Counted from the stretch's first letter, positions 37,650 to 62,470 are shown. The stretch is DNA of 64,000 nt from an uncultured bacterium (GCA_965652075.1 CBFGTN010000004.1:6775-70774); one strand, 5' to 3'. Translations and numbers: made by a program. Notes: generated from the sequence alone by a model not told the origin.

Positions 37650-37674
37650 GGCGCCGATGATAGACCGATGCCCG

Positions 37675-38409
37675 TCAGCCCTCGGGCGACGCGCTCGGCT
37701 CCGCCGACTGCGTTGGCGAGCCGGACGGTGCCGGAGTCCGCGTCGGCGCGGCCTCGCCGGGCAGCTGCGAGACGATCGATCGGTTCACCGCGTCGTCGAC
37801 GCCGATCAGCAGGAAGACGATGTCGCCGCTCGACCACGTGTAGATGTGCGTCCCCAGCGCCGTCGCGTTGTCCTCCGGGCGGGTCCACACGCGGGTGCCG
37901 TCGACGACCGCCCGTTTCCATGGCTTCGGGTCGAGCCCGGCGATCCCGACGTAGCGCCCCGCCGTGGCGAGGTGCGGCTTGAGGTCGGCGGTTCGCACGT
38001 CCGGGCCGTCGACGCGCATCGCGTACAGCGACGTGCGCGGCTCGACCGCGTAGGCGAGCACGAGGGATCGGAAGCGGTCCCCGATCTCGCCGTACGCGAT
38101 GGCGACGTCGCCGGGGGTGAGGGCGAACTCATCGAAGGGCGCGACCGTGATCGTCACGCCGCGCGCCTCCGTCGGGATGAGGGCCGCCAGATCGTCGTCC
38201 GGCTCGTTCGTGAAGCGCGGCGTCGGCTCTGGCGTGGGGCTTGGCGTGGGGGTCGGCACCGACGTCGCGAGCGTCGTCGGTGCGGCCGACGTGGGCGGAG
38301 CCTCGGACGGCGTCTCGGCGCTCGAGCACGCGCCGGTGACCAGGGCAATGACGAGCGCCAGTCCCGCCGCCGGTGCCGGGCGTGGCGGGGCGAGGCGAGC
38401 GGTCGTCAT
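37675..38409 (-). CDS. Lipoprotein (hypothetical) with a PT-rich linker
   Basis: Signal peptide plus lipobox (LVTGAC), a PTPTPSPTPEPTP linker and a beta-rich C-domain. Confidence 0.55.
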   Translation of the reverse strand: MTTARLAPPRPAPAAGLALVIALVTGACSSAETPSEAPPTSAAPTTLATSVPTPTPSPTPEPTPRFTNEPDDDLAALIPTEARGVTITVAPFDEFALTPGDVAIAYGEIGDRFRSLVLAYAVEPRTSLYAMRVDGPDVRTADLKPHLATAGRYVGIAGLDPKPWKRAVVDGTRVWTRPEDNATALGTHIYTWSSGDIVFLLIGVDDAVNRSIVSQLPGEAAPTRTPAPSGSPTQSAEPSASPEG

Positions 38410-41400: not shown

Positions 41401-41739
41401 GACGCCGAGCTCGGCGCGCAGCGCCTCGACGACGGCGCGGGCGACCGATGCGGTGTTCGGGGAAGTGGCGAGCCCGGCCGCGATCCGGCCGAACACGGCG
41501 AGCTCCCCGGCGCGGTCGGTTGGCGCGTCGTCGTGCGGGGCGACGTCCTCCCCGCCGCGATCCTCGACGAGCAGGCGCTCGACGTCGCTTCGGCGGAAGC
41601 GCCGGTCGCCGCGGGCGTTGATGCGGTAGGCAGCGAGGCGACCGGCATCGGTCCAGGTGCGAATCGTGTTCGGGTGCACGCCGAGGAGCGTCGCCGCCTG
41701 GGCGACCGTCAGCAGCGTCTGGGCATCATCGCGCGACAC
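38428..41739 (-). CDS. Multidomain signalling protein: excisionase/MerR-type HTH – tandem GAF domains – GGDEF diguanylate cyclase – C-terminal degenerate HD-like domain
   Basis: N-terminus: LLTVAQAATLLGVHPNTIRTWTDAGRL (an HTH_17-like domain). Three GAF-like modules follow, then a GGDEF domain with an intact RYGGDEF site. The C-terminus (GHADRVGRLAS...LAGRLHLLDARG) resembles a degenerate HD/HD-GYP. Confidence 0.8.
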   Translation of the reverse strand: MSRDDAQTLLTVAQAATLLGVHPNTIRTWTDAGRLAAYRINARGDRRFRRSDVERLLVEDRGGEDVAPHDDAPTDRAGELAVFGRIAAGLATSPNTASVARAVVEALRAELGVDRVAVYVGDSPPYGLVAHGGFGQAPPATRSTDSAGDEVEIVLAVKRGPIGVLVIDAESGAGMSAAFRRSLSATVGTTLASTGLLGRARRELQRARALRSVTKELTGTLDLTAVLGEVVDLTRSLFEADKAGLWLVTPGDERPFKVAAQHGLSDAFLARVADLRFDADTVGVRTLRERRPFARSLDDDGIGALRDSYLAEGIQTVCLVPLVGADESLGLLGLYHRNERTWPEEEVALVHAFADQAAVAIQNARLYRSVASQAARMRSIQDLSARLNRLTDVKAIAEAIVAEAEPLADFHDIRVYEVDWERNVCDPIAFTREMLDGDPENAVERLRVEIGEGFTGWVAEHGEPLLVNDALDDDRGKTIDGTEDVPESMLVVPMLYEGRALGVIVLSQLGFHRFTDDDLQTMSIFAGYAAQAMANATSYERLIDQSSELARRADSQRRLLQINERLLSALDHADVLETIADGLRDVVAYDNLSVYRTDPAELVMTPVLTREQHAEEVGRYAIPFGRGLMGWAVEHSQPILANDALSDPRALQIPGTPPDPEAVVVVPLVAEGEVLGALNVSRLGGPEVYFSESDFELIQLFAGQASIALRNADTHRAVSQRAETDALTGLSNHGAFQRDLGGFVEHLGDAPGRPRLAVLMMDLDSFKAYNDRHGHPAGDALLHRAATAIYGAARSDDRVYRYGGDEFAIILPHTGVTEAARVANRIRRAVSALTAADPTPVTITVGVAGLPGDATDRAGLIAAADTALYYGKRAGENRVVRADRLAADVGDLRGTLEELASAALRDSDDEHAVEHLVERASQLAGPQHEGQDTLRDALLTIARSLDGRGAAARGHADRVGRLASAVAGRLGLADEERSSIELAGRLHLLDARGVAELAPIPSLREVGALIEGYRRLAAGRRRSRGVPIGAHIVGAANDYDELVSGGSAPRLGRAEAMAELRALPAGYRREVLETLAAVVADRGDVGRRRRRTDVRSEEERGAA

Positions 41740-41879
41740 CGGCCGGACCCCGTCATCGTCTCACCAGGCCGCGCCCGAAGGGCGAATGGAGCTTCTGGTA
41801 AGAACCGTGGACCCGATGCTAGAAACGGGATGTTCGGGGTGCGATGCCCCATTCGTACCGGCTCGCCCCGGACGTCGGC

Positions 41880-48210: not shown

Positions 48211-49206
48211 ATGCCGCGCTCCGACGACGTCCGCGTTCGCGCCGGCGAGATCGTCCTCGCGGGCACGCTGACGGTGCCCGATGGCGACGGCGAGAGCCCC
48301 CAGCGGTGGCCGTGGGCCGTGCTCGTGCCGAGCTGGCTGCCGCGCAATCGGGACGGCGCCTGGGACCGTGCCGCTCACCCCGGTTGGTTCGCTCCCGCCG
48401 ATCCGGGCCGCGGCCTCTTCGAGCGCATCGCGGACGCCCTCGCAGCGCGCGGCGTGGCGAGCCTGCGCTACGACGCTCGCGGGTGCGCCGAGTCGGGCGG
48501 TGACTGGGCTGCCGCGAGCCTGTTCACCCGGATCGACGACGCGCGCGACGCGATCGGTGCGATGCGATCGAGGCGCGAGCTCGACCTGCGCCGGACGGCG
48601 ATCGTCGGGCACGGCGAGGGCGCGGTCATCGCCATCAGCGTCGCGATCGGCGACCCGGCGATCGGCGCGGTCGGCCTCGTCGCGCCGCCGGCGCGCTCGT
48701 TTCGTGACGTCCTGCGACGCGGTGCCGCGGAGCGGGGGCGCACCGGGACCGACCGCGAGCACCCGTTCGTCGCCGCGCTCGACGCCGCGGCCGAGGAGCT
48801 CATCGAGCGCGTTGGGCGGCGCGAGCCCGAGATGCAGGTCCGCGTCGGGGACGCATCGGTCCGGCTGTCGCTTGCCGGCTGGGAGCAGGCGATCCACACG
48901 CCGGCCCTCGCCCTCGCGACGATGCTGCACCGGCACGTCGTCATCGCCCACGGGGACCGCGACGCGTGGTCGCACCCGGACGAGTCGCGGATCCTCGCCT
49001 CGGTCCTCGAGGACGCCGGCAACCGGCCTGTCCTGCAGGTGGTGGCCGGCGCCGGGCACGACCTGGCCGAGGCGGAGGACGATCGGATCGGCGCGTTCGC
49101 CGACGCGCTCGTGGCCGGGATGGAGCCGAGAGCGCTGCCGCCGGTGCTCGTGGCCATCGAGGAGATGACCTCGGATCCGGACGCGACGCTAGACTTTCGG
49201 CCGTGA
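48211..49206 (+). CDS. Alpha/beta-hydrolase fold protein
   Basis: Nucleophile-elbow-like GHGEG in an alpha/beta-hydrolase layout. Start chosen at the ATG at 48211, to avoid overlapping the divergent oxidoreductase start. Confidence 0.55.
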   Translation: MPRSDDVRVRAGEIVLAGTLTVPDGDGESPQRWPWAVLVPSWLPRNRDGAWDRAAHPGWFAPADPGRGLFERIADALAARGVASLRYDARGCAESGGDWAAASLFTRIDDARDAIGAMRSRRELDLRRTAIVGHGEGAVIAISVAIGDPAIGAVGLVAPPARSFRDVLRRGAAERGRTGTDREHPFVAALDAAAEELIERVGRREPEMQVRVGDASVRLSLAGWEQAIHTPALALATMLHRHVVIAHGDRDAWSHPDESRILASVLEDAGNRPVLQVVAGAGHDLAEAEDDRIGAFADALVAGMEPRALPPVLVAIEEMTSDPDATLDFRP

Positions 49207-49667
49207 CCCGACTGGCCGCCGGCGATCCGGCACCCGCATTCTCCCTCGCCACCGACGACGGCAGCGTCGTCACCTCGGAGTCGCTCGCGGGATCGCGCTA
49301 CGTCCTGTACTTCTACCCCAAGGACGACACGCCCGGCTGCACGACCCAGGCCTGCGGGCTGCGCGACAGCTGGTCGCGCGTGACCGATACCGGCGTCGAG
49401 CTCTTCGGCGTCTCGCCCGACAGCGTGAAGAGCCACGCGAAGTTCCGCGAGAAGTTCGACCTGCCCTATCGGCTCATCGCCGACGAGGGGCACCGCCTCG
49501 CCGAGGCATACGGGGTGTGGATCGAGAAGTCGAACTACGGGCGGACGTACTACGGCAACGAGCGCAGCACGTTCGTCGTCGGCCCCGACGGCCGGATCGA
49601 GCACGTCCTTGCGCAGGTGAAGCCGGCCGAGCACGTCGACCAGCTCGTGGAGGCGCTCGCCGCGTGA
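49203..49667 (+). CDS. bcp: Thiol peroxidase Bcp (peroxiredoxin Q)
   Basis: YFYPKDDTPGCTTQACGLRD carries the PxxxTxxC peroxidatic motif with a resolving Cys 5 residues later. GTG start in a GTGA overlap with the hydrolase stop. Confidence 0.85.
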   Translation: MTRLAAGDPAPAFSLATDDGSVVTSESLAGSRYVLYFYPKDDTPGCTTQACGLRDSWSRVTDTGVELFGVSPDSVKSHAKFREKFDLPYRLIADEGHRLAEAYGVWIEKSNYGRTYYGNERSTFVVGPDGRIEHVLAQVKPAEHVDQLVEALAA

Positions 49668-49880
49668 ACGGCGGAGGCGGCATCGTGCTCGCCAGCCTCC
49701 TGGTCGCCGCGGCGCTCCTGCTCGTGATCGTCGGCGTCCTGACGCTCGCGGCGCTCCTCGATCCCATTCCCTGAGGCTCGCTTCCCACGCATCTCGCGCG
49801 ATGGCACGCATCGTGCGATGGATGGCGCGTGCGGCGTCGACAGGCGCCGCAGGGGGGACATACCGACGAAGGAGAGACCG

Positions 49881-50027
49881 ATGCTCTGGACGATCATCGC
49901 CATCCTGCTGGTCCTCTGGCTGCTGGGCTTGATCGGCAACGTCGGCGGCGGCCTCATCTGGCTGCTGCTCGTCATCGCCGCGATCGTGCTCGTCTTCCAG
50001 CTACTCAGCGGGCGACGCGCCGTCTGA
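49881..50027 (+). CDS. Small membrane protein (48 aa), lmo0937-family-like
   Basis: MLWTIIAILLVLWLLGLIGNVGGGLIWLLLVIAAIVLVFQLLSGRR. AAGGAG lies 6 nt upstream of the ATG. Confidence 0.55.
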   Translation: MLWTIIAILLVLWLLGLIGNVGGGLIWLLLVIAAIVLVFQLLSGRRAV

Positions 50028-50294
50028 CCCGCACCAGCCGCTGACGCCGGCCGGCCCGATCCCCTGATCGGCAGGGGGGAAGCGGCCGGAGCGGCGATCT
50101 GTGCGGGATGTGACGCGGCCCGCCCGTGACCGATGAGCTGTCACGCTCGTCGGTCACCCTGGGCGGGTCGTGTCGTACCCTTCGCGCTCTTCAGGCCCGG
50201 CCACCGCCCGACTCGCCGCGACGGTGCCGGGCTTCGTCGTGCGTCCGGGGTGGCCGATTCGGAGCAGGGCGCTCGGCTACCCTGACGCGAACCG

Positions 50295-51389
50295 ATGAAG
50301 CTGCTCCATTTCGCGGACCTCCATCTCGACGCGCCCTTCGCGTGGGCGACGCCGGAGACGGCGCGGGTCCGGCGCCGGAATCGCCGCGAGTCGCTGATGC
50401 GGATCCTCGCCCTGGCGGAGTCAGAGGCGGTCGACGCGATCCTGTGCGCGGGCGACCTGTTCGAGCAGGATCGGATCGGTCCCGACACCGTGGAGTTCCT
50501 GCGCAGCGCGTTCGAGCGCACCGATCGCCGCGTCTTCCTCGCGCCGGGCAACCATGACTGGCTCTCGGCGCGGAGCCCGTACCGGCTCGTCCGCTGGTCA
50601 CCGAACGTCCACGTCTTCACCGAGGCCGAGCTGCGGCCCGTCGAGCTCACAGATGGCCTGACCCTGTGGGGCGCCGCCCATCGTGCCCCCGCGAACACCG
50701 ACGATCTTTTCGCCGGGTTCCGGACGGAGCGCGGGGGTCTCCACGTCGCCGTCGCGCACGCGTCCGAGCGAGCGACCCTGGCGTGGCAGGAGTCCGGCAA
50801 GGCCCCGCACGCGCCGTTCGACGCGGCGGAGCTGCCGGGGACGGGCCTGGCCCATGCGTTCCTCGGCCACTATCACCTGCCGCGCGATGCGGAGCTGCAC
50901 ACGTATCCGGGCAACCCGGACCCGCTCGACTTCGGCGAGACCGGCGAGCGCGGCGCAGTGATCGCGACGATCGGCGCCGATGGCGCCATCAGCAGGTCGC
51001 GCCACGACGTCGCGGTCAGCGAGGTGCACGACCTCGAGATCGACGTGGGCGGAGCGACGCATTCGGATGAGGTCGCCGTCGCCGTCCGCGAGCGGCTCGC
51101 TCCGCTCGGTGGCTGCGTGCGCGTCACCCTGTCGGGAGAGCTCGCTCCGTCGCTGCAGCTCGACCTCCGCGAGCTCGAGCGCAACGGCGAGCACCTCGAG
51201 GGGCTCGTCGTGCGGGCGGGCCACCTGACCGTCGGCTACGACCTGGATGTGATCGGCGCCGAGTCCACCGTTCGGGGACAGTTCGTGCGATCGGCCGTCG
51301 AGGAGATCGCCGACCCGGAGCTGCAGCGGCGCGTGATCCTCACCGGCCTGCGCGCCCTCGAGGGCCGCGGCGACCTGGAGGTCGCGTAG
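50295..51389 (+). CDS. sbcD: Mre11/SbcD-type metallophosphoesterase nuclease (YhaO-like)
   Basis: Calcineurin-like motifs FADLHLD, AGDLFE, GNHD and GHYH. Confidence 0.8.
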   Translation: MKLLHFADLHLDAPFAWATPETARVRRRNRRESLMRILALAESEAVDAILCAGDLFEQDRIGPDTVEFLRSAFERTDRRVFLAPGNHDWLSARSPYRLVRWSPNVHVFTEAELRPVELTDGLTLWGAAHRAPANTDDLFAGFRTERGGLHVAVAHASERATLAWQESGKAPHAPFDAAELPGTGLAHAFLGHYHLPRDAELHTYPGNPDPLDFGETGERGAVIATIGADGAISRSRHDVAVSEVHDLEIDVGGATHSDEVAVAVRERLAPLGGCVRVTLSGELAPSLQLDLRELERNGEHLEGLVVRAGHLTVGYDLDVIGAESTVRGQFVRSAVEEIADPELQRRVILTGLRALEGRGDLEVA

Positions 51390-51391
51390 GC

Positions 51392-54199
51392 GTGCGCATC
51401 GAGCGCGTGATCGCGCACGCCTTCGGACCCTTCCGCGGTGAGTCCCTCGACCTCGCGTCGGGGCTCACGGTCGTGAGCGGACCGAACGAGGCAGGCAAAT
51501 CGAGCTGGCACGCCGCGATCCGCGCCGGTGTCTGCGGCGTGCGACGCGGCCGTGGCGCCGCGACGAAGTCCGACGCGGCGTTCGAGGAACGCCACCGGCC
51601 CTGGGACGGCGACGGGCGCTGGGCGGTGGAGGTCCGCCTGCTTCTCGACGATGGGCGGACGATCGAGCTCCACCAGGATCTCGCCGGCAAGGTCGCATGC
51701 CGCGCCGTGGACGTGGTCCTCGGCCGCGACGTGTCCGACGAGATCATGGATGGCACCCCCGATGCGTCGCGCTGGCTCGGGCTCGACCGCGAGGCGTTCG
51801 CCTCGACGGTCTGCGTCGGGCAGGCGCAGATCGCCGCGATCGCCGGGCGGGAGGCGGCCGAGTCGCTCCAGGAGCACATGCAGCGGGCCGCCGCCACCCG
51901 CGGCACCGATGCGACCGCGGCCGAGGCACGCCAGCGGATCGACGAGTTCCGCCGCATCCACGTCGGCGTCGATCGCCAGGGCTCGCGCGGGCCGCTTCGC
52001 AGCGCGAAGGAGCGCGTGGAGCACGCGCGAGCGACGCTCGCGGACGTCCGAGCCCGGCACGAGGCGTTCCTCGACGCCAGCCTGAGCGCCGAGGCCGCCG
52101 AAGGCGAGGCCGACGCCCAGTCTCGGCGCGCCGACGCGATCGAGGCGGCGATCGCCGCCGCCGCCGCGGACGAGCTCAACCGTCGAGCCGGTCGCGCCAC
52201 GGCGCTCGCCGCCCGGCACCCCGCCGAGCCCGCGGGCCAGCTCGACCGGGACGCCCGGGCCGATGCCGTTGCCGCGGCGCTCGACGGCTGGAGCGGCCGG
52301 GCCCGGCCCGAGCCGTTGTCCGGCCCTACGGCGGCCGAGCTCGAGGCGGAGCTCGCGGCGTTGCCCGCGCCACCCGTCGGGGACGTCGAGCCACACCCGT
52401 CGGTCGTCGATGCGCGCCGCAGGCTCGATCGTGCCGACGAGGCGCTTGGCCTGCTCGGTGACGCTCCCACCGTGAAGCAGGCCGCCGGACCTGGGGAGGA
52501 GGAGCTGCGGGCGATCGCCCGCCGCCTCCGGACACCGGATCCCGATCCACGCCCCGACCTCGAGGCGGAGCTGCACGCGGCCGAGGCCGAGCTCTCCGCG
52601 GGCAACGGTCGCGGGGCAACCGGTTGGGTCGTCGCCGCGGCCCTTGCGGCGCTCGCCGCCGCGGCCGCGCTCACGGCCGGGCAGGTGGCGGTCGCCGTGG
52701 TCGGGTTCGCGCTCGCGGCTGGTCTCGTCGCATGGGCCCTGATCGGCAGGCGCTCGGCCTCCACGGGGTCCATGCGCGTCGAGCTCGCGCGCGCGGCGCT
52801 CGTCCCGTCCGCGCTCGCCCGCGATGCGGCCGCCTCGGAACGTCGCGCCGCTGCCGAGCAGGCCGCGTCGATGGGCCTGCCGGTCGATCCCGTCGACCTG
52901 GACCGACGCGCGGACGCGGCTGCCGAGGCCGCCCGTGCCGCTCGCGAGGCGGACGCGTGGAGCGTTCGGCGCGCGAGCCTCGACGCGCGCCGCGCCGGCG
53001 CGATCGCCGAGCTGCGCGAGGCCCTGCGGGCGCGGGGCGTCGAGGCTGCCTCGGACGACGTGGCGGATGCGATGTCGGCGTACGAGGCCTCGTGCCGCCG
53101 ACGTGCCGAAGAGACTCGGCGGGCCGGCGGCCGAGAGGCGCTGGTCCGCGCCGTGGCGACGCGGCGCGAGGCCGAGGCCGCGACTGCCGAGACCGAGCGC
53201 GTCGCCGTCCGCGCCGAGGCCGCGCTGCGCACCGCCGCCTCCCAGGTCGGGATCTCGGCCGACGGATCGGCTGACGATGTTGCAAAGGCGCTCGGCGGCT
53301 GGCGCCGTGAGCAAAGCGAGGAGGCTCGGCGATCGGATGAGGCTCGCCGCGAGTGGCACGAGCTGACGACGCTGCTCGATGGACGGTCCCTCGACACGTT
53401 GCGATCGGACGCGGACGAGGCGGCGACGCGGGCATCGACCCTCGCGGCGCACGTCGACGCCGTGACCCTCGCGGAGCTCGGATCGCGCGAGGACCTCGTC
53501 TCGCTGCTCGAGGTCGAGCGCGAGGAGCTGGCGCGCGCGCGGGCGGACGCGAGCACCCAGCGCGGCGCGCTGGCCGAGATGCAGCGCGATCTCCCGGACG
53601 TCGCCGAGGCGGAGGAAGCGCTGTCCGACGCAGCGGACGAGCTCGCCAGGGTCGTGCGCCTCGGCGAGGTGCTCGCGGAGACGACGCGCCTGCTGCGCGC
53701 GGCCGAGGATCGGGTCCATCGCGATCTTGCGCCGGTGCTGTCGCAGGCGATCACGCGATGGCTGCCGACCGTGACGCTCGGCGCCTACACAGAGGCGACG
53801 GTCGATCCGGCCGATCTCTCGATCCGCGTGAAGCACGCCGAGACCGGACAGTGGCGCCCGCCGCCGACGCAGCAGCGCCACCAGGCATCCGTCGAGCTCC
53901 TCTCCGAGGGAACCGGCGAGCAGATCTACCTGCTCCTGCGCGCGGCGATGGCCGAGTACCTGACCACGACCGGGGAGACCGCCCCGCTGCTGCTCGACGA
54001 GGTCACGGCCCAGGCCGATGCCGAGCGCAAGCAGCGCCTCCTCGAGGTGCTCCACCAGCTGAGCGCGGAGCGCCAGATCGTCCTCTTCACCCACGATGAC
54101 GACGTCACGGCATGGGCTGCGCGAACCCTCGATGGCTCGCGCGATCGGCTGGTTGAGCTCGGCGCTCTCGCACCGGCACCGCAGGCGGCCCTGGGCTGA
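51392..54199 (+). CDS. sbcC: SbcC/Rad50-family ATPase without a zinc hook; the central region is a predicted TM hairpin (YhaN-like)
   Basis: N-terminal Walker A GPNEAGKSS; long Ala/Arg/Glu coiled coils; C-terminal D-loop/Walker B LLLDEVTAQAD. No CxxC hook motif. The mid-protein reads WVVAAALAALAAAAALTAGQVAVAVVGFALAAGLVAWALIG. The GTG start is 3 nt after the sbcD stop. Confidence 0.8.
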   Translation: MRIERVIAHAFGPFRGESLDLASGLTVVSGPNEAGKSSWHAAIRAGVCGVRRGRGAATKSDAAFEERHRPWDGDGRWAVEVRLLLDDGRTIELHQDLAGKVACRAVDVVLGRDVSDEIMDGTPDASRWLGLDREAFASTVCVGQAQIAAIAGREAAESLQEHMQRAAATRGTDATAAEARQRIDEFRRIHVGVDRQGSRGPLRSAKERVEHARATLADVRARHEAFLDASLSAEAAEGEADAQSRRADAIEAAIAAAAADELNRRAGRATALAARHPAEPAGQLDRDARADAVAAALDGWSGRARPEPLSGPTAAELEAELAALPAPPVGDVEPHPSVVDARRRLDRADEALGLLGDAPTVKQAAGPGEEELRAIARRLRTPDPDPRPDLEAELHAAEAELSAGNGRGATGWVVAAALAALAAAAALTAGQVAVAVVGFALAAGLVAWALIGRRSASTGSMRVELARAALVPSALARDAAASERRAAAEQAASMGLPVDPVDLDRRADAAAEAARAAREADAWSVRRASLDARRAGAIAELREALRARGVEAASDDVADAMSAYEASCRRRAEETRRAGGREALVRAVATRREAEAATAETERVAVRAEAALRTAASQVGISADGSADDVAKALGGWRREQSEEARRSDEARREWHELTTLLDGRSLDTLRSDADEAATRASTLAAHVDAVTLAELGSREDLVSLLEVEREELARARADASTQRGALAEMQRDLPDVAEAEEALSDAADELARVVRLGEVLAETTRLLRAAEDRVHRDLAPVLSQAITRWLPTVTLGAYTEATVDPADLSIRVKHAETGQWRPPPTQQRHQASVELLSEGTGEQIYLLLRAAMAEYLTTTGETAPLLLDEVTAQADAERKQRLLEVLHQLSAERQIVLFTHDDDVTAWAARTLDGSRDRLVELGALAPAPQAALG

Positions 54200-54202
54200 C
54201 CG

Positions 54203-54922
54203 ATGCCTGACGACCGGCTCCCGACGCCGGAGCGCGCGCTCGTCGTCGCCGCCCATCCCGACGACATCGAGTTCGGCGCGGCCGGCACCGTGGCACGCTG
54301 GATCGGGGAGGGCGCTGCGGTGCGCTACCTGCTGGCGACCCGCGGCGACAAGGGCAGCGACGACCCGACGACGGATCCCGCGCAGCTGGCCACCATGCGC
54401 GAGGGCGAGCAGCGCGCCGCCGCCGCCGAGATCGGTGTCGACGGGGTCGACTTCCTGGACGAGCCCGACGGACAGGTCCTGCCGACGCTCGAGCTACGCG
54501 AGCGGATCACGCGGGCGATCCGTGAGCTGCGGCCGGAGGTGGTGATGACCCACGATCCGACCGTCCTGTTCGTGAACAACGAGTGGGTCAACCACCCGGA
54601 CCACCGCGCCGTCGGCCAGGCGGCGATCGACGCCGTGTTCCCGACCGCCCGCGACCCGCTGAACTTCCGCGAGCACGTGGAGGCGGGGCTGGCTCCGTGG
54701 AAGGTCGCGGAGCTGTTCCTGTGGAGCACGAACGAGGCGAACCAGCTCGTCGACATCGGCGACACCCTCGACGCCAAGATCGCGGCGCTCAGCCACCATG
54801 CCAGCCAGTTCCGATCCCTCGAGGACATCGCGCGGTGGGTTCGCCGCCGCAGCGAGGAGCTCGGCGAACGGGCCGGCTACCGAGCTGCGGAGGGCTTCCG
54901 CCGCGTGACCCTGGCCCGATGA
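54203..54922 (+). CDS. PIG-L/LmbE-family N-acetylglucosaminyl deacetylase (MshB/Mca-like)
   Basis: AHPDDIEFGAAG motif with downstream His/Asp ligands (HPDH). It starts 4 nt after sbcC. Confidence 0.8.
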   Translation: MPDDRLPTPERALVVAAHPDDIEFGAAGTVARWIGEGAAVRYLLATRGDKGSDDPTTDPAQLATMREGEQRAAAAEIGVDGVDFLDEPDGQVLPTLELRERITRAIRELRPEVVMTHDPTVLFVNNEWVNHPDHRAVGQAAIDAVFPTARDPLNFREHVEAGLAPWKVAELFLWSTNEANQLVDIGDTLDAKIAALSHHASQFRSLEDIARWVRRRSEELGERAGYRAAEGFRRVTLAR

Positions 54923-56949
54923 CCGGGCCTGGGGGTCGCGGTCCGGTCGTCGTCGCCCTCGTCGCGCTGCTCGTCGCCGGCTGTGCCGTCGAGCCGACAC
55001 CCGAGCCCACACCGCGCCCAACGACGTTCCCGGTCGCGGGTCCCGATGCCGGCGCTGCCGTCGCGGCGGCGTTCGTCGAGGCCTGGGGCGCCGGCGACTA
55101 CGAAGCGATGTACGCGGCTCTCGACCCAGGCGTTCAGTCGCGCTATCCGCTCGAGTCGTTCGACGAGCTACACGCGGCGTTCGCCGAGATGGCGGAGGTC
55201 AGCGAGATCAGCGCGACGATCGGGACGCCCGAGACGATCGGCCTGCCCGCGGAGCCCCGGCCCGACCACTTCCCGGCGCCGTCGCCGACCCCCGTCCCGA
55301 CGCCCGACCCATCCGCGTCGGCTGCACCGTCGGGCACGCCGGCACCCTCGCAGCCGCCCGTCGACCCGCAGGCTCCGCTCGAGGGGCCGGTCCCCGCGCT
55401 CTCCGTCCCCCTCGAGCTGTCCGTTGCATCGGAGCGCTTCGGCGACCTCGAGCTCGATCGCGGGCTCGTCCTCGTCCAGGGGCCCGACGGCTGGCTCGTG
55501 CGATGGTCGCCCGAGGTCCTGTTCCCGGAGCTCGGCCCGGAGGGCACTCTCCGGCTCGACCGCGACCTCGGTCGCCGCGGACGCATCCTCGGCGACGGCG
55601 ATGTCGTCTGGGCCCGCAATCGCCAGGACGGTGCGCGGGTCTACCCGCAGGAGGCCCTCGCCGGTCAGGTGATCGGGTACGTGAGCGAGGTCACAGCCGA
55701 GGACCTCGAGACGCTGGAGGCGCGGGGATATCGGGCCGGGGACGTCGTCGGTCGCTCCGGCCTCGAGTACGGGGCGGAGTCGCTGCTGCGCGGCACTCCG
55801 GGCTGGTCGCTGGTGGCGGTGCCGGCCGAGGGCGAGCCATCGGTCCTGTTCGAGACCGAGATGGTGCCGGGCGCGGATGTGACGATCACGATCCGCCCCG
55901 CCGTCCAGCTCGCCGCGCAGGACGCGCTGGCCGCCTATCCCCAGGGCGCCACCGCGGTCGTCGACCCGACCTCGGGCGACGTGTGGGCGCTCGCCAGCCA
56001 GCCGCCGTTCAACCCGAACTCGATGACGATCGGGAGGACGCTTGGGGGCGCGCCGCTGGCACCCGCCGAGGCGGGGCAGACCTTCAACCGCGCGGTGCTC
56101 GGCGCGTACCCCGCGGGCTCCTCGTTCAAGCCGTTCACGCTCCTCGCCGCCCTCCAGACCGGCATCGTCACGCCGTCGAGCTCCCGCCCGTGCCCCCCGA
56201 CCTGGCAGTACGGCAACTTCACGTTCCACAACTACATGGACCACACGCTGCCTGGCTCGGTCGGGCTCGCAGAGTCGATGGCGTTCAGCTGCAACACGAC
56301 GTACATGCCGCTCGCCTACGAGGTCTTCCAGGCGAACGAGACCGCGCTCACCGACCTCCTGAAGGACTTCGGCTTCGGCGCGCCGACCGGGATCACGTAC
56401 CTCGTCGAGGAGACGGGCATCGTGCCGGACGACGCGTGGCTGCGCGAGAACGGCCGAGGTGGGTACTCAGGCTTCGAGCAGGTGCAGCTCGCCATCGGCC
56501 AGGGCGCGTTCCTGGGGACGCCGCTGCAGCTCGCCAACGCGTTCGCGGCGATCGGGAACGGCGGCACACTGTGGACGCCTCGGATCGTGACGAAGGCGGC
56601 CCTGCGCGACGGCACCCGGCTGCTCGAGGTCCATCGCTCGGTGGCACATCGCATCGCGGTCGATGCGAGCGACTTCGCGTTCGTGACCGATACGCTGCAG
56701 GCCGTCGTGACGCTGCCCTACGGCACCGGCACCGCGGCCTTCGCGGGGTTCGGCATCCCGGTGGCGGGCAAGTCGGGGACGGCCGAGTCCGGCACGCCGG
56801 ACCCGCACGCGTGGTTCCCCGCCTACGCCCCAGCCGACGACCCGACGATCAGCGTCGCGACCGTGCTTCCGAACATCCCGCTCGGCACCGGCGGATCGGA
56901 CGCGGCTCCGCTCGTGCGCCGCGTCATGGCCGCGTACTTCGCGAGCTAG
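54919..56949 (+). CDS. Lipoprotein penicillin-binding protein (class B-like transpeptidase with an NTF2-like N-terminal domain)
   Basis: Lipobox LVAGC, a PT linker, and the transpeptidase motifs SSFKP (SxxK), SCN (SxN) and KSGTA (KTG). ATGA overlap with the PIG-L gene. Confidence 0.85.
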   Translation: MTGPGGRGPVVVALVALLVAGCAVEPTPEPTPRPTTFPVAGPDAGAAVAAAFVEAWGAGDYEAMYAALDPGVQSRYPLESFDELHAAFAEMAEVSEISATIGTPETIGLPAEPRPDHFPAPSPTPVPTPDPSASAAPSGTPAPSQPPVDPQAPLEGPVPALSVPLELSVASERFGDLELDRGLVLVQGPDGWLVRWSPEVLFPELGPEGTLRLDRDLGRRGRILGDGDVVWARNRQDGARVYPQEALAGQVIGYVSEVTAEDLETLEARGYRAGDVVGRSGLEYGAESLLRGTPGWSLVAVPAEGEPSVLFETEMVPGADVTITIRPAVQLAAQDALAAYPQGATAVVDPTSGDVWALASQPPFNPNSMTIGRTLGGAPLAPAEAGQTFNRAVLGAYPAGSSFKPFTLLAALQTGIVTPSSSRPCPPTWQYGNFTFHNYMDHTLPGSVGLAESMAFSCNTTYMPLAYEVFQANETALTDLLKDFGFGAPTGITYLVEETGIVPDDAWLRENGRGGYSGFEQVQLAIGQGAFLGTPLQLANAFAAIGNGGTLWTPRIVTKAALRDGTRLLEVHRSVAHRIAVDASDFAFVTDTLQAVVTLPYGTGTAAFAGFGIPVAGKSGTAESGTPDPHAWFPAYAPADDPTISVATVLPNIPLGTGGSDAAPLVRRVMAAYFAS

Positions 56950-56969
56950 TCGGCCGTCCTTGCAGCACG

Positions 56970-56999
56970 CACGACCGAACGGGTAGCATCGATCTTGCC
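56970..56999 (+). promoter_or_regulatory. Putative housekeeping-sigma promoter (TTGCAG-N18-TAGCAT) upstream of the flavoprotein/cytochrome bc operon
   Basis: Read directly from the sequence, about 55 nt upstream of the GTG at 57053. Hexamer-only evidence. Confidence 0.3.
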
Positions 57000-57052
57000 G
57001 CTCCTGTCAGCCTGATGGTCTAACGCCGCCCGGAGAGAGCGACGACGACACC

Positions 57053-59026
57053 GTGATCAGCGATACCGCGATTCCACTGAGGTTCCAGACCGCCGAGGTC
57101 GGTGTCGACTGGCTTCAGTGCAACATCGAGTGCCAGGAAGGCTGCCCGGTCAACACGAACTGCCGCGGCTACCTGATGCTTGCCGCCGAGGGGCGCTTCG
57201 AGGAGGGGTACATCCTCGCCCGCGACCCGAACCCGGTGGCCGCGATCTGCGGCTATGTCTGCTCCGCGCCCTGCGAGAAGGCCTGCCGCCGCGCGGACAT
57301 CGACAAGCCGCTCGCGATCCGCGCGATGAAGCGCTTCCTCGTCGACTGGCACTACGGCAACAACATGCCAGACAACGTCGTCGTCGCCCCGCCGACCGGC
57401 CGCAGCGTGGCCGTCATCGGCGCCGGTCCCGCCGGCCTCGCCGCGGCCAAGGAGCTCGGAGGCTGGGGCCACGAGGTGCACGTCTACGAGGCGCTCCCCT
57501 CCGGCGGCGGCACGACCCTCATCGGGGTCCCCGCCTTCCGCCTGCCGCGCGACGTCATCGAGCTCGACGTCAACTGGGTCGCCAAGCACGGGGTGCAGTT
57601 CCACTACAACGTCGAGATCGGCCGCGACGTGACGCTCCAGGAGCTGCGCGACCGGCACGATGCCGTCGTCGTCGCCACGGGCTGCATGTACCCGGTCGCG
57701 ATGAACGTCCCTGGCGAGGAGCTCGAGGGCGTGATCTACGGCGTCGACTTCCTGAAGCGCGCGAACCTCGGGCAGCCTCAATGGGTGGGCGAGCACGTCG
57801 TCGTCATCGGCGGCGGCTACACCGCCATGGACTCGAGCCGAACGGCGCTCCGGCTGGGCGCCAAGACCTCGACGATCATCTACCGCCGCGGCCCGGAGGA
57901 GATGGTCGTGGACGAGGAGGAGCAGCACGAGACGCGCTTCGAGGGCGTGAAGTTCGAGTACTTCGCCTCGCCGGTGGAGGTCACCTCCGGTCCGGACGGC
58001 AGGGTGACCGGGATGGTCTTCCAGCGCACGCGCCTGGGCCCGCCGGACGCGAGCGGGCGGCGCAGCGCCGAGCCGATCCCCGGCAGCGAGTTCACCGTCC
58101 CCTGCGACATGGTCATCCCCTGCACGAGCCAGGCGTCGGACAACAACGTGCTGGGCGAGTTCGGCGCGGCACTGAACCGTCACGTCGGCGTGACCGACAC
58201 GCGCACGGTCGTCGAGGGCGGGTCGCTGTCATCGTGGCGAACGCCGCCGCTGAACGGATCCACCCCGCGCGACGCCAGCGGCGGCTCGCTCAACGCCCTG
58301 CCGTTCGAGTTCAACCGCGGCAACGTCGTCATCAACGCGGACAGCTTCGGCACGACCGTCGACGGCGTGTTCGCGGTCGGCGACTTCGTCACCGGCCCGG
58401 CGACGATCATCGAGGCGGCCGGGCTCGGGCGGCGGGCCGCGCGGGCCGTCGACCGCTGGCTGGCCGGCGTGCGCGGTGAGGAGCTCGAGGAGCTGCCGGT
58501 GATCAACCGCGCGGTCATCACCCAGAGCCTCGACCACGACATGCCACGCTTCTACGAGGCGACCCGGCGCCAGGAGATCCCGATGGCGCCGCCGGAGCTG
58601 CGCCGGGACTTCACCGGACTCGTCGAGGTCGGCTACGACACGCGCGGAGCGATCGCCGAGGGCACGCGCTGCCTGCAGTGCAACCACAACATCAACATCG
58701 ACGGGCCCCGCTGTATCCTGTGCGGGCTCTGCGCCGACGTCTGCCCCGAGGGCGTGATCTACATGGTCGACAAGGCGCAGGTCGGCGGCGACGACCCGGA
58801 GCAGGACTTCTTCAAGGCGTGGCCGCGCGGAATCGCGATGATCATCGACGAGGAGCGCTGCATCCGCTGCAACCTCTGCGTCGAGCGGTGCCCGACCAAC
58901 TGCATCACGATGGACCGCCTGGAGCTCGAGCGGTTCACGCCTGATGGGAAGGTGCTCTTGGAAAGCTACAAGGACAACGTCCTGGGACAGGTCGGCCAGC
59001 AGGCCGGAATGGCGGTCGATCGATGA
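57053..59026 (+). CDS. GltD/NfnB-like FAD/NAD(P)H oxidoreductase with an N-terminal 2x[4Fe-4S] domain and a C-terminal 2x[4Fe-4S] ferredoxin domain
   Basis: N-terminal Cys clusters (CNIECQEGCPVNTNCRGY, CGYVCSAPCEKAC). Two Rossmann motifs (VAVIGAGPAGLAAA and VVIGGGYTAMD). C-terminal ferredoxin motifs CLQCNHNINIDGPRCILCGLCADVCP and CIRCNLCVERCP. ATGA overlap with cytochrome b6. Confidence 0.8.
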   Translation: MISDTAIPLRFQTAEVGVDWLQCNIECQEGCPVNTNCRGYLMLAAEGRFEEGYILARDPNPVAAICGYVCSAPCEKACRRADIDKPLAIRAMKRFLVDWHYGNNMPDNVVVAPPTGRSVAVIGAGPAGLAAAKELGGWGHEVHVYEALPSGGGTTLIGVPAFRLPRDVIELDVNWVAKHGVQFHYNVEIGRDVTLQELRDRHDAVVVATGCMYPVAMNVPGEELEGVIYGVDFLKRANLGQPQWVGEHVVVIGGGYTAMDSSRTALRLGAKTSTIIYRRGPEEMVVDEEEQHETRFEGVKFEYFASPVEVTSGPDGRVTGMVFQRTRLGPPDASGRRSAEPIPGSEFTVPCDMVIPCTSQASDNNVLGEFGAALNRHVGVTDTRTVVEGGSLSSWRTPPLNGSTPRDASGGSLNALPFEFNRGNVVINADSFGTTVDGVFAVGDFVTGPATIIEAAGLGRRAARAVDRWLAGVRGEELEELPVINRAVITQSLDHDMPRFYEATRRQEIPMAPPELRRDFTGLVEVGYDTRGAIAEGTRCLQCNHNINIDGPRCILCGLCADVCPEGVIYMVDKAQVGGDDPEQDFFKAWPRGIAMIIDEERCIRCNLCVERCPTNCITMDRLELERFTPDGKVLLESYKDNVLGQVGQQAGMAVDR

Positions 59027-59757
59027 GCAACGGAGACCGCAACCCGATCGTCCGCGCCGTCACCGAGTCGTCGCTGTGGCGCAGCCTTTTCCGTCAGCCG
59101 TACCCGACCACCAGCCGCACGCGGGCGCTGGCGGTGATGAACAACGTCTTCCTCCACCTCCACCCGGTCCGGGTGAAGCGCCACGCGGTGCGCTACACCT
59201 ACACGTTCTGCCTGGGCGGGATCAGCTTCTTCCTGTTCCTGGCGCTGACCGTGACCGGCCTGTACCTGATGTTCTTCTACGTCCCGTCGGTGAGCCGCGC
59301 CTACCAGGACATCCAGTCCATCGAGGCGGCGGTCGCGTTCGGCAGCTTCACGCGCAACATGCATCGCTGGGCGGCGCACCTCATGGTGCTGACCGTCTTC
59401 CTGCACATGATCCGGGTCTTCTATCACGGCGCCTACAAGCCGCCGCGTGAGTTCAACTGGGTCGTCGGCGTGATCCTGCTCTTCTGCACCCTGTGGCTGA
59501 GCTTCACGGGCTACCTGCTGCCGTGGGACCAGATCGCGTTCTGGGCCATCACCGTCGGCACCCAGATGGCGCAGTACGCACCGATCCTCGGCCCGGAGAC
59601 CGGCTTCTTCCTGCTCGGCGGCATCCAGGTCGGCGGCGACACGCTCCTGCGCTTCTATGTCATGCACGTGATCGCGTTCCCGCTCATCACCGCGATCTTC
59701 CTGATCGTCCACTTCTGGCGGATCCGGAAGGACGGCGGGATCAGCGGGCCGGTGTAG
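59023..59757 (+). CDS. Cytochrome b6-type subunit (N-terminal half of a split cytochrome b)
   Basis: 244 aa with four TM helices and the haem-ligand His pairs (HRWAAHLMVLTVFLHMIRVF, then YVMHVIAFPLITAIFLIVH). It ends before the cytochrome b C-terminal helices. Confidence 0.9.
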   Translation: MSNGDRNPIVRAVTESSLWRSLFRQPYPTTSRTRALAVMNNVFLHLHPVRVKRHAVRYTYTFCLGGISFFLFLALTVTGLYLMFFYVPSVSRAYQDIQSIEAAVAFGSFTRNMHRWAAHLMVLTVFLHMIRVFYHGAYKPPREFNWVVGVILLFCTLWLSFTGYLLPWDQIAFWAITVGTQMAQYAPILGPETGFFLLGGIQVGGDTLLRFYVMHVIAFPLITAIFLIVHFWRIRKDGGISGPV

Positions 59758-59773
59758 CCTTGGTGATGGACCG

Positions 59774-60391
59774 ATGACGATCGAGAAGCGGCCGAACGCC
59801 ACCGCCGACAAGAACGCCCCGACCCAGGCGCCGGAGCGCGCGCCGATCGTGGCGCCCGGCACCGGGCCGAAGCTGCCCGGGCCGCCCGGAGTCCCGGGCA
59901 CGGAGCGGTTCCGGCTCCTCGCCTACGTCAAGCAGGAGTCGATGGTCCGCGTCGACAAGCGGCCGGACGAGACCGTCCTGACCTGGCCGCACCTGCTGCG
60001 CGCCGAGTTCGTGATGATGTCACTGATCCTCGTCCTGCTCGTCGTGACCGCGATCTTCATCCAGGCCCCGCTCGAGGAGATGGCGAACCCGGCCGTCACG
60101 CCGCACGTCGCGAAGGCCCCGTGGTACTTCCTGGGCCTGCAGGAGATCCTCAGCTACTTCAACGCCACCGTCGCCGGCGTCGTCGTGCCCACGTTCTACC
60201 TGCTCGGCCTGGCCGCGATCCCGTACATCGACCGCTCGCCGTACAAGGCGGCCCGTGACCGCAAGCTCATGTGGGTCTTCTTCCTCTGCCTGATGATCGG
60301 CGGCCTGCTCGTCACCTTCATCGGCTCCTTCTTCCGCGGGCCCGGCTGGAACTGGGTCTGGCCGTGGGACGGGCTGTTCTTCAACCTATGA
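59774..60391 (+). CDS. Cytochrome b C-terminal portion (b6f subunit IV-like)
   Basis: PEWY-type Qo motif KAPWYFLGLQE with three TM helices. ATGA overlap with the Rieske gene. Confidence 0.85.
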   Translation: MTIEKRPNATADKNAPTQAPERAPIVAPGTGPKLPGPPGVPGTERFRLLAYVKQESMVRVDKRPDETVLTWPHLLRAEFVMMSLILVLLVVTAIFIQAPLEEMANPAVTPHVAKAPWYFLGLQEILSYFNATVAGVVVPTFYLLGLAAIPYIDRSPYKAARDRKLMWVFFLCLMIGGLLVTFIGSFFRGPGWNWVWPWDGLFFNL

Positions 60392-61044
60392 CCCAGCAGA
60401 CGTCATACGGCGAGGTCACCGGGCCGCCGACCGGCGAGATGAGCCGGCGGACGTTCATGCGCCGCATGCTCGGCGTCGGCGTCGGGATCATGTCGCTCGA
60501 GTTCCTGGGCGCGACGCTCGCGTTCCTGTGGCCGAACCTCACCGAGGGCCTCGGGGCAGCGATCACGATCGGCACGCCTGCCGACGTCACCGCGCTCGAG
60601 CCCAGATGGGCCGAGGGCGTCCCGTTCATCTACACCCGCGCGAACCTCTTCTTCATCAACGTCCCCGCCGGAAAGGAGCTCGTCGACACGGAGGGGAACG
60701 TCGGCACGCCGGTCGATGACCCGGGTGGGGACGTGGACGAGGACCTGCCGCTGGCGGATCGGTCCGTCCTCGCCCTCTGGCGGAAGTGCCCGCACCTCGG
60801 CTGCCAGGTCCCGCAGCTGTGCGACGTGAGCTTCTGGTTCGAGTGCCTCTGCCACGGCTCGAAGTACACGATCCTCGGCGAGAAGCGGGACGGCCCGGCG
60901 CCGCGTGGCATGGACCACTTCCCGGTCAGCGTCGAGGGCGGCGCGTACGTCATCAACACCGCCGAGGTCGTCTCCGGGCCGCCACCCGGCACGGTCACGT
61001 TCGACTCGCGAACGGCGACCGACATGGCGCACTGCACGGGCTAG
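60388..61044 (+). CDS. Rieske [2Fe-2S] iron-sulfur protein with a Tat signal
   Basis: Twin-arginine motif SRRTFMRRM and a TM anchor. Rieske boxes CPHLGC and CLCHGS. Confidence 0.9.
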   Translation: MTQQTSYGEVTGPPTGEMSRRTFMRRMLGVGVGIMSLEFLGATLAFLWPNLTEGLGAAITIGTPADVTALEPRWAEGVPFIYTRANLFFINVPAGKELVDTEGNVGTPVDDPGGDVDEDLPLADRSVLALWRKCPHLGCQVPQLCDVSFWFECLCHGSKYTILGEKRDGPAPRGMDHFPVSVEGGAYVINTAEVVSGPPPGTVTFDSRTATDMAHCTG

Positions 61045-61047
61045 CCG

Positions 61048-61866
61048 ATGCGCCTGAAGTCGCTCGGCGTCATCATCACGACCCTGCTCGCCGCCGTCAC
61101 CATGCTGTACTGGTTCACCGACGGCATGCGCCGCGAATCCCTCGCCGCGCAGCACGAGGAGGAGCTCGCGCACTACGGCGAGGTGATCTTCAGCGACGAC
61201 GAGACCGAGCCGGCCGCCGCGGGATGCGCGCGCTGCCACGGTGACGACGGGACCGGCGGCGAGATCCCGAACGACCCTGACGGCCGGCGCGCTCCCTCGC
61301 TGCACACCGCCAGCCTGGCGAACAAGCTGCGCGTGAACCCCGAGTACGTCCGCCTCGTCGTGAGCTACGGCGGCGTCGTCGTCTCCGGCAACGTGAACTC
61401 GCCGATGCCCGCCTGGAGCAGCGAGGTCGGCGGCCCGCTGAACGTCCAGCAGATCGACGCCGTCGTGCAGCTCGTCGAGGGCTGGGCCGTGGAGGCTGGG
61501 GAAGAGGCGCCGGCGGAGGTCGAGGACACGCCCGAGGCCGGCCAGGAGGTCTTCAACTCGGCGGGCTGCGCCGGCTGCCATGGCCCCGACCTCATGGGCA
61601 GCACTTCCGGGCCGGACATCTCGACGATCGGCGACGGCCCGATCATCGACTTCGGCGGCGACTTCCTCACGCCGTCGGATACCGACCAGATGCTCGCCGA
61701 TTTCGAGGAGGACCCACGCCTCTTCCTCGAGAACTGGATCCGCGACTCGTCGGGGAACTACAACGGCGGCGAGGCCACTGGGATGCCGGCGCATGACGAG
61801 GAGGCGATCAACGAGAGCCAGATGCGGGCGCTGATCACCTTCCTGCTGACCCAGACCGGCGAGTGA
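61048..61866 (+). CDS. Membrane-anchored dihaem c-type cytochrome
   Basis: N-terminal TM helix, two CxxCH sites (CARCH, CAGCH) each followed by a Met-containing segment. It starts 4 nt after the Rieske stop. Confidence 0.85.
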   Translation: MRLKSLGVIITTLLAAVTMLYWFTDGMRRESLAAQHEEELAHYGEVIFSDDETEPAAAGCARCHGDDGTGGEIPNDPDGRRAPSLHTASLANKLRVNPEYVRLVVSYGGVVVSGNVNSPMPAWSSEVGGPLNVQQIDAVVQLVEGWAVEAGEEAPAEVEDTPEAGQEVFNSAGCAGCHGPDLMGSTSGPDISTIGDGPIIDFGGDFLTPSDTDQMLADFEEDPRLFLENWIRDSSGNYNGGEATGMPAHDEEAINESQMRALITFLLTQTGE

Positions 61867-61876
61867 GGGTCGACCG

Positions 61877-62470
61877 ATGAGCGCTGGCACGTACCCCGTC
61901 TACCGGCGTCGCGGCGGCTTCGGCCGCCTGCTGTCGTGGGCCGACGACTTCATGAACTGGTTCCTGTACGGCCACGAGACCTGGCTCGTCGCCGTGCTCA
62001 AGGGCGTGCCGCTCTTCCTGTTCATCTACTTCCTGATGACGTACGTGCCGAACTACGTCTACTACCTGATCACCGTCGAGCTGCCGTTCCTGCGACTGAG
62101 CGACGACCTCGGCTTCCTCATCGCCAACGGCGTGGCCGGTGGCAACTTCGCGCTCATCGTCATCCTCGCCATCGGGGTGCAGGCGGCACGCGGCCGGCGC
62201 GGGTTCGGCTGGTCGGCGATCCGGATCTTCGTCGGCCTGAACTACGTGATGGTCGTCCTGCTCCTCATCCCGCTCCTGGCGTTCAACCTGGCCGGCGGCT
62301 CCTTCTGGCCGGTGCGGATCCCCCTGCAGTCGGTCGCCTTCGGCGTGGTCGTGGCGGGAATGGGTGCCGCCGCCCTCGTGTACCTGTACTTCGAGTACAA
62401 CCGCATCACCCGGCGCGAGGCCGAGGCTGCCGCCCGCCTTGGCAGCTCGGGCCCGCCGGCCATCCGCTGA
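61877..62470 (+). CDS. Hypothetical polytopic membrane protein co-transcribed with the bc-type complex (possible accessory subunit)
   Basis: 197 aa with about 4 TM helices. It starts 11 nt after the cytochrome c stop. Confidence 0.5.
   Translation: MSAGTYPVYRRRGGFGRLLSWADDFMNWFLYGHETWLVAVLKGVPLFLFIYFLMTYVPNYVYYLITVELPFLRLSDDLGFLIANGVAGGNFALIVILAIGVQAARGRRGFGWSAIRIFVGLNYVMVVLLLIPLLAFNLAGGSFWPVRIPLQSVAFGVVVAGMGAAALVYLYFEYNRITRREAEAAARLGSSGPPAIR

Follow-up and report, generated by a model that had tools for sequence, protein, structure and literature searches.

A nuclease-ATPase gene pair in an uncultured bacterium

We analysed a stretch of 64,000 nucleotides (nt) of DNA from an uncultured bacterium (GCA_965652075.1, CBFGTN010000004.1:6775-70774), hereafter referred to as the window, and concentrate here on positions 50295 to 56949, where a gene for an Mre11/SbcD-like nuclease is followed by one for a Rad50/SbcC-like ATPase and by two genes for enzymes of other families. 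The G+C content of the window is about 72%, and its long run of plus-strand genes was identified via codon-position G+C. An identical contig is present in one soil or sediment-type metagenome, and the nearest genomes are metagenome-assembled genomes (MAGs) labelled Chloroflexia, Chloroflexota or Candidatus Limnocylindria. The features of the nuclease-ATPase pair are the following:

50295-51389, plus strand: Mre11/SbcD/YhaO-type metallophosphoesterase of 364 amino acids (aa); Pfam Metallophos 3e-14, calcineurin-like
51392-54199, plus strand: YhaN/SbcE-type Rad50-like ABC ATPase of 935 aa, with the order N-head, arm, apex hairpin, arm, C-head
51479-51502, plus strand: Walker A/P-loop motif GPNEAGKS, aa 30-37, invariant in alignments A1 and A2
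52613-52747, plus strand: uncharged helix-turn-helix, aa 408-452, with predicted transmembrane (TM) helix 1 at aa 412-430, the turn TAGQ, and predicted TM helix 2 at aa 432-452
53900-54097, plus strand: C-terminal head motifs LSEGTGEQ (signature), LLLDEVTAQAD (Walker B/D-loop) and FTHD (H-loop)

The two genes are separated by a 2-nt gap (TAG-gc-GTG), the GTG being the start codon of the ATPase. In the nuclease, the phosphoesterase motifs DLHLD, GDLF, GNHD and GHYH are all intact, and the nearest solved chains are those of T. maritima Mre11/SbcD (4e-9). Against the NCBIfam model of the SbcD subfamily, TIGR00619, the protein scores 53.6 bits, under the cutoff of 77.65.

The ATPase has Rad50-like heads and arms and no zinc hook

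The original prediction for this locus, made from the DNA alone, described an SbcC-like ATPase with Walker A, coiled-coil arms and a C-terminal D-loop that lacks the CxxC zinc hook, and each of these points agrees with what we find at 51392-54199. The protein matches Pfam AAA_27, AAA_23, SMC_N and SbcC_Walker_B, and a Q-loop is present in addition to the motifs listed above. A profile search of the PDB with the ATPase returned Rad50 heads as the sole matches, the C-terminal head region aligning with Rad50 head structures at 5e-15. We modelled the protein with AlphaFold2 from a 65-sequence alignment (mean predicted local distance difference test score, pLDDT, 80.5); the best PDB fold match of the model in Foldseek is Rad50 from the C. 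thermophilum MRN complex (7zr1), and JetC and Lamassu LmuB are found among many SMC-like proteins further down. The Rad50 equivalog models give at most 31 bits, with cutoffs of 700-1000. The ATPase contains four cysteines and not one CxxC; among its 120 closest homologues no apical CxxC is present, and a single homologue has a CxxC elsewhere.

The arms have features of their own. Two non-helical Pro/Gly motifs that lie within them, LPAPPVGD (aa 324-331, 52361-52384; consensus LPxxPxGD) and GLPVDP (aa 495-500, 52874-52891; consensus GLPxDP), are nearly invariant, and the N-terminal arm, with about 208 aa, is much shorter than the C-terminal one with about 342 aa. The motifs and the unequal lengths together imply that the arms do not form a simple antiparallel coiled coil, and they may hold a joint or a binding site. 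Just N-terminal of the signature motif lies a 10-residue insert, PPPTQQRHQA (aa 823-832, 53858-53887), which has a pLDDT below 50 in the model and which, among the sequences inspected, is common only to a 78%-identical homologue (P0002).

A conserved hydrophobic helix pair occupies the apex

The same prediction had placed two consecutive hydrophobic helices in the middle of the coiled coil and proposed that they form a membrane-inserted apex. The hydrophobic string it quoted corresponds to aa 412-452. The complete segment, aa 408-452, comprises 45 residues, none of them D, E, K or R, in an ATPase whose arms are 34% charged. The Kyte-Doolittle 19-mer maximum of the protein is 2.44, and Hessa-type sums amount to +0.5 kcal/mol for the first half of the segment and -1.0 kcal/mol for the second. 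AlphaFold2 models a helix at 409-428, a turn at 429-431 and a second helix at 432-493 that continues straight into the C-terminal arm. The uncharged run and the modelled helix-turn-helix thus bear out the proposed helix pair.

Relatives carry the same element. The central hydrophobic segment is kept in 120/120 close homologues, far more than chance would give, and three independent protein sets show the hairpin in 141/145, 86/90 and 114/116 cases; across 428 homologues the longest uncharged run always falls at relative position 0.45-0.53. The sequence of the segment drifts, yet its length (median 47 aa, interquartile range 44-50) is conserved, as are its hydrophobic character and a Gly/Pro turn in the middle, frequently G-x-P/G in relatives and GQV in the window protein. 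Low-GC members have segments rich in Leu, Ile and Phe, with Kyte-Doolittle values of up to 3. Over the 15 residues on each side the net charge is positive (K+R about 3.0, D+E about 2.0), in the arms it is negative, and such positive flanks fit a hairpin that has both of its ends in the cytoplasm. These properties support the view that the central segment resembles a membrane hairpin and not a coiled coil.

The pair belongs to the widespread YhaN/YhaO family

The likeness to the YhaN/YhaO pair of Bacillus, which had been suggested for the locus from the start, was followed by walking outward from the window protein. A homologue from a Mollicutes MAG (L065; phmmer 6e-25 to the window protein) leads to proteins that carry the IMG name 'uncharacterized protein YhaN', and from these P0323 leads on to Paenibacillus, Cohnella and Bacillus sp. 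proteins that NCBI/UniRef name YhaN, either as 'Uncharacterized protein YhaN' or as 'YhaN AAA domain-containing protein'. One of the IMG-named YhaN proteins, P0305, is matched at E 7.7e-63. In one and the same 90% cluster, some proteins have the IMG name YhaN and others 'SbcCD ATPase subunit', which explains the SbcC label on close homologues of the window protein. We then aligned a 123-sequence profile of the window's clade (A2) with a profile of 30 Paenibacillus, Cohnella and Bacillus sp. YhaN proteins (A3): hhalign gives a probability of 100% and E 8.6e-45 over 863 columns that run from the N-head through the hairpin to the C-head, and the YhaN/YhaO assignment is supported by this comparison. 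In YhaN of the Bacillales type, the central hydrophobic segment is present in 114/116 proteins and a central CxxC in 0/116. UniProt annotates YhaN as a multi-pass membrane protein.

We searched 1.84 billion cluster representatives (50%-identity clusters) with a profile and obtained 16,840 matches at E<=1e-3, of which 6,464 reach E<=1e-10 and 1,169 reach E<=1e-30. The hydrophobic segment is retained by 141 of the 145 best new representatives, and the hairpin-bearing family spans more than 10 phyla. Scanning GTDB with a single genome for each species, we found 80 loci, distributed over Chloroflexota, Actinomycetota (including Mycobacterium sp., Umezawaea, Lentzea and Micromonospora), Acidobacteriota, Dormibacterota, Eremiobacterota and Bacillota, with some proteobacterial MAGs and one from the Archaeoglobaceae in addition. 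The majority have the hairpin despite protein lengths of about 600-1,400 aa; the homologue from Mycobacterium sp. (L011) is among those that do. The mycobacterial Rv1277/Rv1278 are possible relatives as well, for which the papers searched give no useful description. In the Archaeoglobaceae MAG (L056, 7001-9697), which has a low G+C content, a nuclease-ATPase pair with a 933-aa protein and a central TM hairpin is found; it may reflect horizontal transfer or a binning error.

To look at gene neighbours, we searched the six-frame open reading frames (ORFs) of all loci with the window proteins. An SbcD-like gene lies immediately 5' of the ATPase gene in all 75 loci that have upstream DNA, and in Paenibacillus a 4-nt overlap joins the Metallophos gene to the start of yhaN. 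All-against-all clustering of the ORFs of 81 loci revealed no third gene family, such as one related to yhaM, that travels with the pair: no clusters other than those of nuclease and ATPase recur in the 80 loci, and the pair is a two-gene module. The two genes are always found together, with intact motifs in both proteins, no zinc hook and a conserved apex, and this is a trait of the family and not a peculiarity of the present locus. Two Paenibacillus loci (L088, 2564-3703; L089, 2499-3626) have a GT4 glycosyltransferase gene on the same strand, 18-33 nt upstream of yhaO; its product is generic, with 114 bits to the BshA model (cutoff 273.7).

Members without the hairpin carry an amphipathic apex helix

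In the few members without a hairpin, precisely this apex position is taken by a single helix of 18-25 aa that contains many Phe, Trp and Leu residues together with 3-4 Arg/Lys and lacks acidic residues, as in GGLFATLFRAIRAVFAALFRLFGGG and LLARLWRAVARLVSALLRAVLRR. Its carriers are Caldilineaceae, several Dehalococcoidia and other MAGs, as well as P0194, P0233, P0235, P0260 and P0344. The helix lies at aa ~420-445 in L027, ~340-372 in L024, ~374-402 in L062, ~366-398 in L069 and ~405-432 in L068, and its hydrophobic moment is 0.44-0.81 in five of the six loci measured and 0.31 in the remaining one (L012). To judge by its residues, the composition is that of an in-plane membrane-targeting helix, and the element looks like a second kind of membrane anchor. 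Two distinct membrane-binding devices at one site argue that attachment of the apex to the membrane is the conserved property. Together with the conserved composition of a drifting sequence and the positive flanks, this alternative apex speaks for the membrane insertion that had been proposed for the window protein.

A proposed membrane anchor in place of the hook

The only member of the family for which a role and an interaction with the nuclease are known is B. subtilis SbcE (YhaN), the product of yhaN, reported as a 106-kDa protein. It has no CxxC motif and interacts with the nuclease SbcF (YhaO); its central domain is unique, with a hydrophobic first half and a conserved Pro, and is completely insoluble in isolation (PMC2811018). 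SbcE contributes to double-strand-break repair and to transformation, and it gathers at the competence pole (PMC2811018). A hook-less ATPase with a hydrophobic centre is therefore not new, having been described for SbcE in 2009 (PMC2811018).

We consider it likely that the window pair is a chromosomal, Mre11-Rad50-like housekeeping complex that belongs to the YhaO/YhaN (SbcF/SbcE) family, one in which a predicted membrane anchor replaces the hook and to which the downstream enzymes are merely neighbours. The hairpin would insert into the cytoplasmic membrane with both ends inside, or the apex would lie on the membrane. Taking the structural place of the zinc hook, the anchor would hold the arm tips, probably those of two protomers, together at the membrane, from where the ATPase heads and the nuclease would hang into the cytoplasm to bind and trim DNA ends; with the arm tips anchored, this processing would take place close to the membrane. 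The analogy with B. subtilis SbcE suggests, as a possible role of such a complex, double-strand-break repair and/or the processing of DNA that enters at the membrane. Attachment of the apex would also explain the polar, competence-associated behaviour of SbcE.

Several observations weigh against this interpretation. Insertion of the apex is a prediction; the first helix is rich in Ala and, with its Hessa-type sum, borderline for insertion; and the pLDDT of the hairpin is merely 59-79. In B. subtilis, SbcE-YFP forms foci on the nucleoid as well as at the pole, and the 2009 paper never terms the protein membrane-bound or the domain transmembrane (PMC2811018); beyond that paper, we found nothing in the searchable literature on a TM segment in SbcE/YhaN. 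The link to YhaN of B. subtilis 168 runs via other Bacillales orthologues. Pfam AAA_27, which we tried and rejected as a marker of YhaN, covers no more than the N-terminal ~50 residues of the window protein and of distant relatives, and for that reason does not discriminate between families. Finally, the spacing of 2-4 nt permits a single transcript from sbcD through the last of the four genes in this genome.

The main competitor of the membrane anchor is a soluble substitute for the hinge, in which the hydrophobic helix-turn-helix would stand in for the zinc hook of a cytoplasmic complex by forming a buried dimerisation bundle. Such a bundle would suit the nucleoid foci of SbcE-YFP, the borderline, Ala-rich first helix and the moderate confidence of AlphaFold2 in the segment. 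It accounts poorly for 45 residues with no charge at all, for a composition that is kept when the sequence is not and that has no heptad polar pattern, and for positively charged flanks; the strongly hydrophobic Leu/Ile/Phe-rich segments of low-GC members, the classic interfacial amphipathic helix at the apex of other lineages and the complete insolubility of the isolated SbcE domain all speak against it too. We regard it as rather unlikely, and both the YhaN/YhaO assignment and the prediction of a TM hairpin are supported.

The pair is not a recognisable defence system

It had also been suggested that the locus might be a DNA-sensing anti-phage module. A defence system against phages or plasmids would here consist of an SMC/Rad50-like sensor ATPase and a nuclease effector, anchored in the membrane to meet injected DNA, and a membrane location would indeed suit the interception of incoming DNA. 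PADLOC reports a weak, partial match to mad3 (2e-14, C-head only) and weak, partial matches to the N-termini of GajA, LmuB, PbeC, AriA and PtuA, and JetC and LmuB are among the fold matches mentioned above. However, none of the PADLOC matches extends beyond generic ABC-head segments, and cognate partner genes are missing, the neighbours being Metallophos, PIG-L, penicillin-binding protein, bcp and cytochrome genes in a stable, syntenic housekeeping setting. We found no relatives on plasmids, on IMG/VR viral contigs or in phage genomes, apart from three weak matches to the head in phage records without annotation, and the characterised member, SbcE, acts in repair and transformation. The suggestion of an anti-phage module is not supported by these results, and we judge a defence role very unlikely.

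Downstream enzymes and expression of the locus

Three further features lie next to the pair, outside the conserved module:

54203-54922, plus strand: PIG-L/LmbE-family deacetylase, 239 aa; Pfam PIG-L 1e-30
54919-56949, plus strand: class B penicillin-binding lipoprotein, 676 aa; Pfam Transpeptidase 7e-55, PBP_dimer 5e-18
49203-49667: bcp, upstream of the nuclease gene

For the deacetylase, the best NCBIfam model is BshB1 (TIGR04001), at 95 bits with a cutoff of 182.5, which makes it a generic PIG-L/LmbE deacetylase. A link to bacillithiol, for which one could invoke the BshB1-like PIG-L protein and the GT4 gene upstream of Paenibacillus yhaO, was rejected: both fall far below the BshB1 and BshA cutoffs, and the glycosyltransferase has no specific link to the PIG-L gene. 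The penicillin-binding protein (PBP) has the motifs SSFK401, SCN457 and KSG618 and a lipobox, LVAGC; its start, earlier put at 54583, is corrected to 54919. Against the PBP2/MrdA equivalog it scores 337, below the cutoff of 455.

That sbcD, sbcC, PIG-L and PBP are tightly chained, as the original prediction stated, is correct: the 2-nt gap inside the pair is followed by a 3-nt gap between ATPase and PIG-L genes (TGA-ccg-ATG) and by a 4-nt overlap between PIG-L and PBP genes (ATGA, 54919-54922), with a 268-nt gap before the nuclease gene and a 103-nt gap 3' of the PBP gene. Co-transcription of the four genes is inferred from spacing alone, and PIG-L and PBP may share a transcript with the pair in this genome. 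A consensus scan of 49600-57200 for sigma-70 promoters and terminators found none. The Gram-positive SOS box GAACN4GTTC, with at most one mismatch, occurs 16 times where 16.4 are expected, and not at all in 50028-50294; SOS regulation was rejected on these grounds.

Conservation tells against a functional tie between the pair and the wall enzymes. PIG-L and/or PBP genes are found downstream in only 5/80 genome loci (L008, L009, L014, L018 and L020), all of which belong to the window's clade, and one of these, L018, has PBP and no PIG-L. The other 75, from Actinomycetota, Acidobacteriota, Bacillota, Dormibacterota, other Chloroflexota and an archaeon, have neither, and Chloroflexota MAGs at 44-51% identity (L010, L017, L023 and L028) likewise lack both. 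Relatives at 70% and about 48% identity do keep the order sbcD-sbcC-PIG-L-PBP. They also keep, wherever the contig reaches, the genes for a thiamin pyrophosphokinase, an energy-coupling factor (ECF) transporter, a hydrolase, bcp and DUF5670 upstream and those for a GltD-like oxidoreductase and split cytochrome b downstream, so that what is conserved is the whole neighbourhood, that is, general synteny. In these relatives the gap between sbcC and PIG-L widens to 36-89 nt, and the junctions on either side stay tight (1-2 nt for sbcD-sbcC; a 4-nt overlap or 5-nt gap for PIG-L-PBP), which points to two separate gene pairs side by side. The ATGA overlap of PIG-L and PBP, seen in the window and in most clade relatives (sites include L003, L005 and L007), likewise marks these two genes as a coupled pair of their own. 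An apparent SbcC-PIG-L fusion, P0028 (1074 aa), was rejected as a frameshift-ridden miscall from a poor assembly. By gene content and spacing, PIG-L and PBP appear as a lineage-specific accident of gene order, outside the machine.

One functional operon of nuclease complex, PIG-L and lipoprotein PBP, for instance for clearing septal DNA during wall building, would be in line with the tight junctions inside, the wide gaps outside and a gene order kept down to about 48% identity, but with the rest of the neighbourhood equally conserved in those relatives, the widened middle gap, the locus with PBP alone, the 75 loci without either gene and no third cluster recurring with the pair, this envelope reading is not supported and is very unlikely.

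Other genes of the window

Between bcp and the nuclease gene lie two tiny ORFs for hydrophobic membrane proteins (49666-49775 and 49881-50027), the second encoding a DUF5670 protein of 48 aa; their position is conserved in clade relatives. Downstream, 57053-62470 holds genes for a GltD-like iron-sulfur (Fe-S)/flavin adenine dinucleotide (FAD) oxidoreductase and then a split cytochrome b6/PetD-type pair, a Rieske protein and a c-type cytochrome, a bc-complex of the Bacillota/Chloroflexota type and not of the actinobacterial QcrB type. On the minus strand, 38428-41760 encodes a 1,110-aa protein that combines a MerR-type helix-turn-helix with three GAF domains and a GGDEF diguanylate cyclase domain; a gene for a WYL/WCX regulator (36615-37784) adjoins it.

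Significance and relation to known systems

The locus is in itself a typical member of a large, already named family and of little import alone; it is the YhaN/YhaO family, very widespread and almost uncharacterised, that deserves attention. The comparative data argue that its defining property is the attachment of Rad50-like arm tips to the membrane. Whether throughout the YhaN-like superfamily, with its thousands of clusters in more than 10 phyla and an archaeon, a membrane anchor (mostly a TM hairpin, elsewhere an in-plane amphipathic helix) replaced the zinc hook of Rad50 is a question on which we find the case about evenly balanced. If it did, membrane-tethered Mre11-Rad50 machines would act on DNA at the cell boundary, be it incoming, trapped in the septum or injected. 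A membrane-anchored organisation of the Rad50 type is not described as such in the searchable literature, and it offers a testable idea of how a Rad50-like complex works without a zinc hook.

With the SMC-like ATPases of defence systems, namely Lamassu LmuB, Wadjet JetC, Gabija GajA, PARIS AriA and MADS mad3, the window ATPase has in common a generic ABC/SMC head and, in some cases, coiled coil, the matches being weak and partial. Unlike these, the window pair has no cognate partners and no association with mobile elements, and it sits in a stable housekeeping context.

Canonical SbcCD/Mre11-Rad50 is much closer: the fold and motifs of the head, the nuclease partner, the gene order and the long helical arms are the same, and Rad50 and Mre11 are the best PDB matches in sequence and fold. 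The differences are that the window ATPase lacks the zinc hook and has a predicted membrane hairpin at its apex, that both proteins score far under the curated SbcD and Rad50 thresholds, and that the arms contain the conserved non-helical motifs LPxxPxGD and GLPxDP.

The closest counterpart is B. subtilis SbcE/SbcF. The window ATPase differs in details: it is slightly shorter than the yhaN product (about 960 aa), it has LSEGT as signature and DEV in Walker B where Bacillales proteins have LSRGT and DDL/DDS, it shows only ~18% identity with the Bacillales YhaN profile, and its locus has no yhaM-like gene downstream and no Gram-positive SOS box upstream. The plan of the two systems is nevertheless the same: the Rad50/SbcC-like ATPase is long-armed, lacks CxxC and has a hydrophobic centre, the gene for an Mre11/SbcD-type phosphoesterase lies directly upstream, and the window's clade aligns with the Bacillales YhaN orthologues over the full length, hairpin on hairpin.

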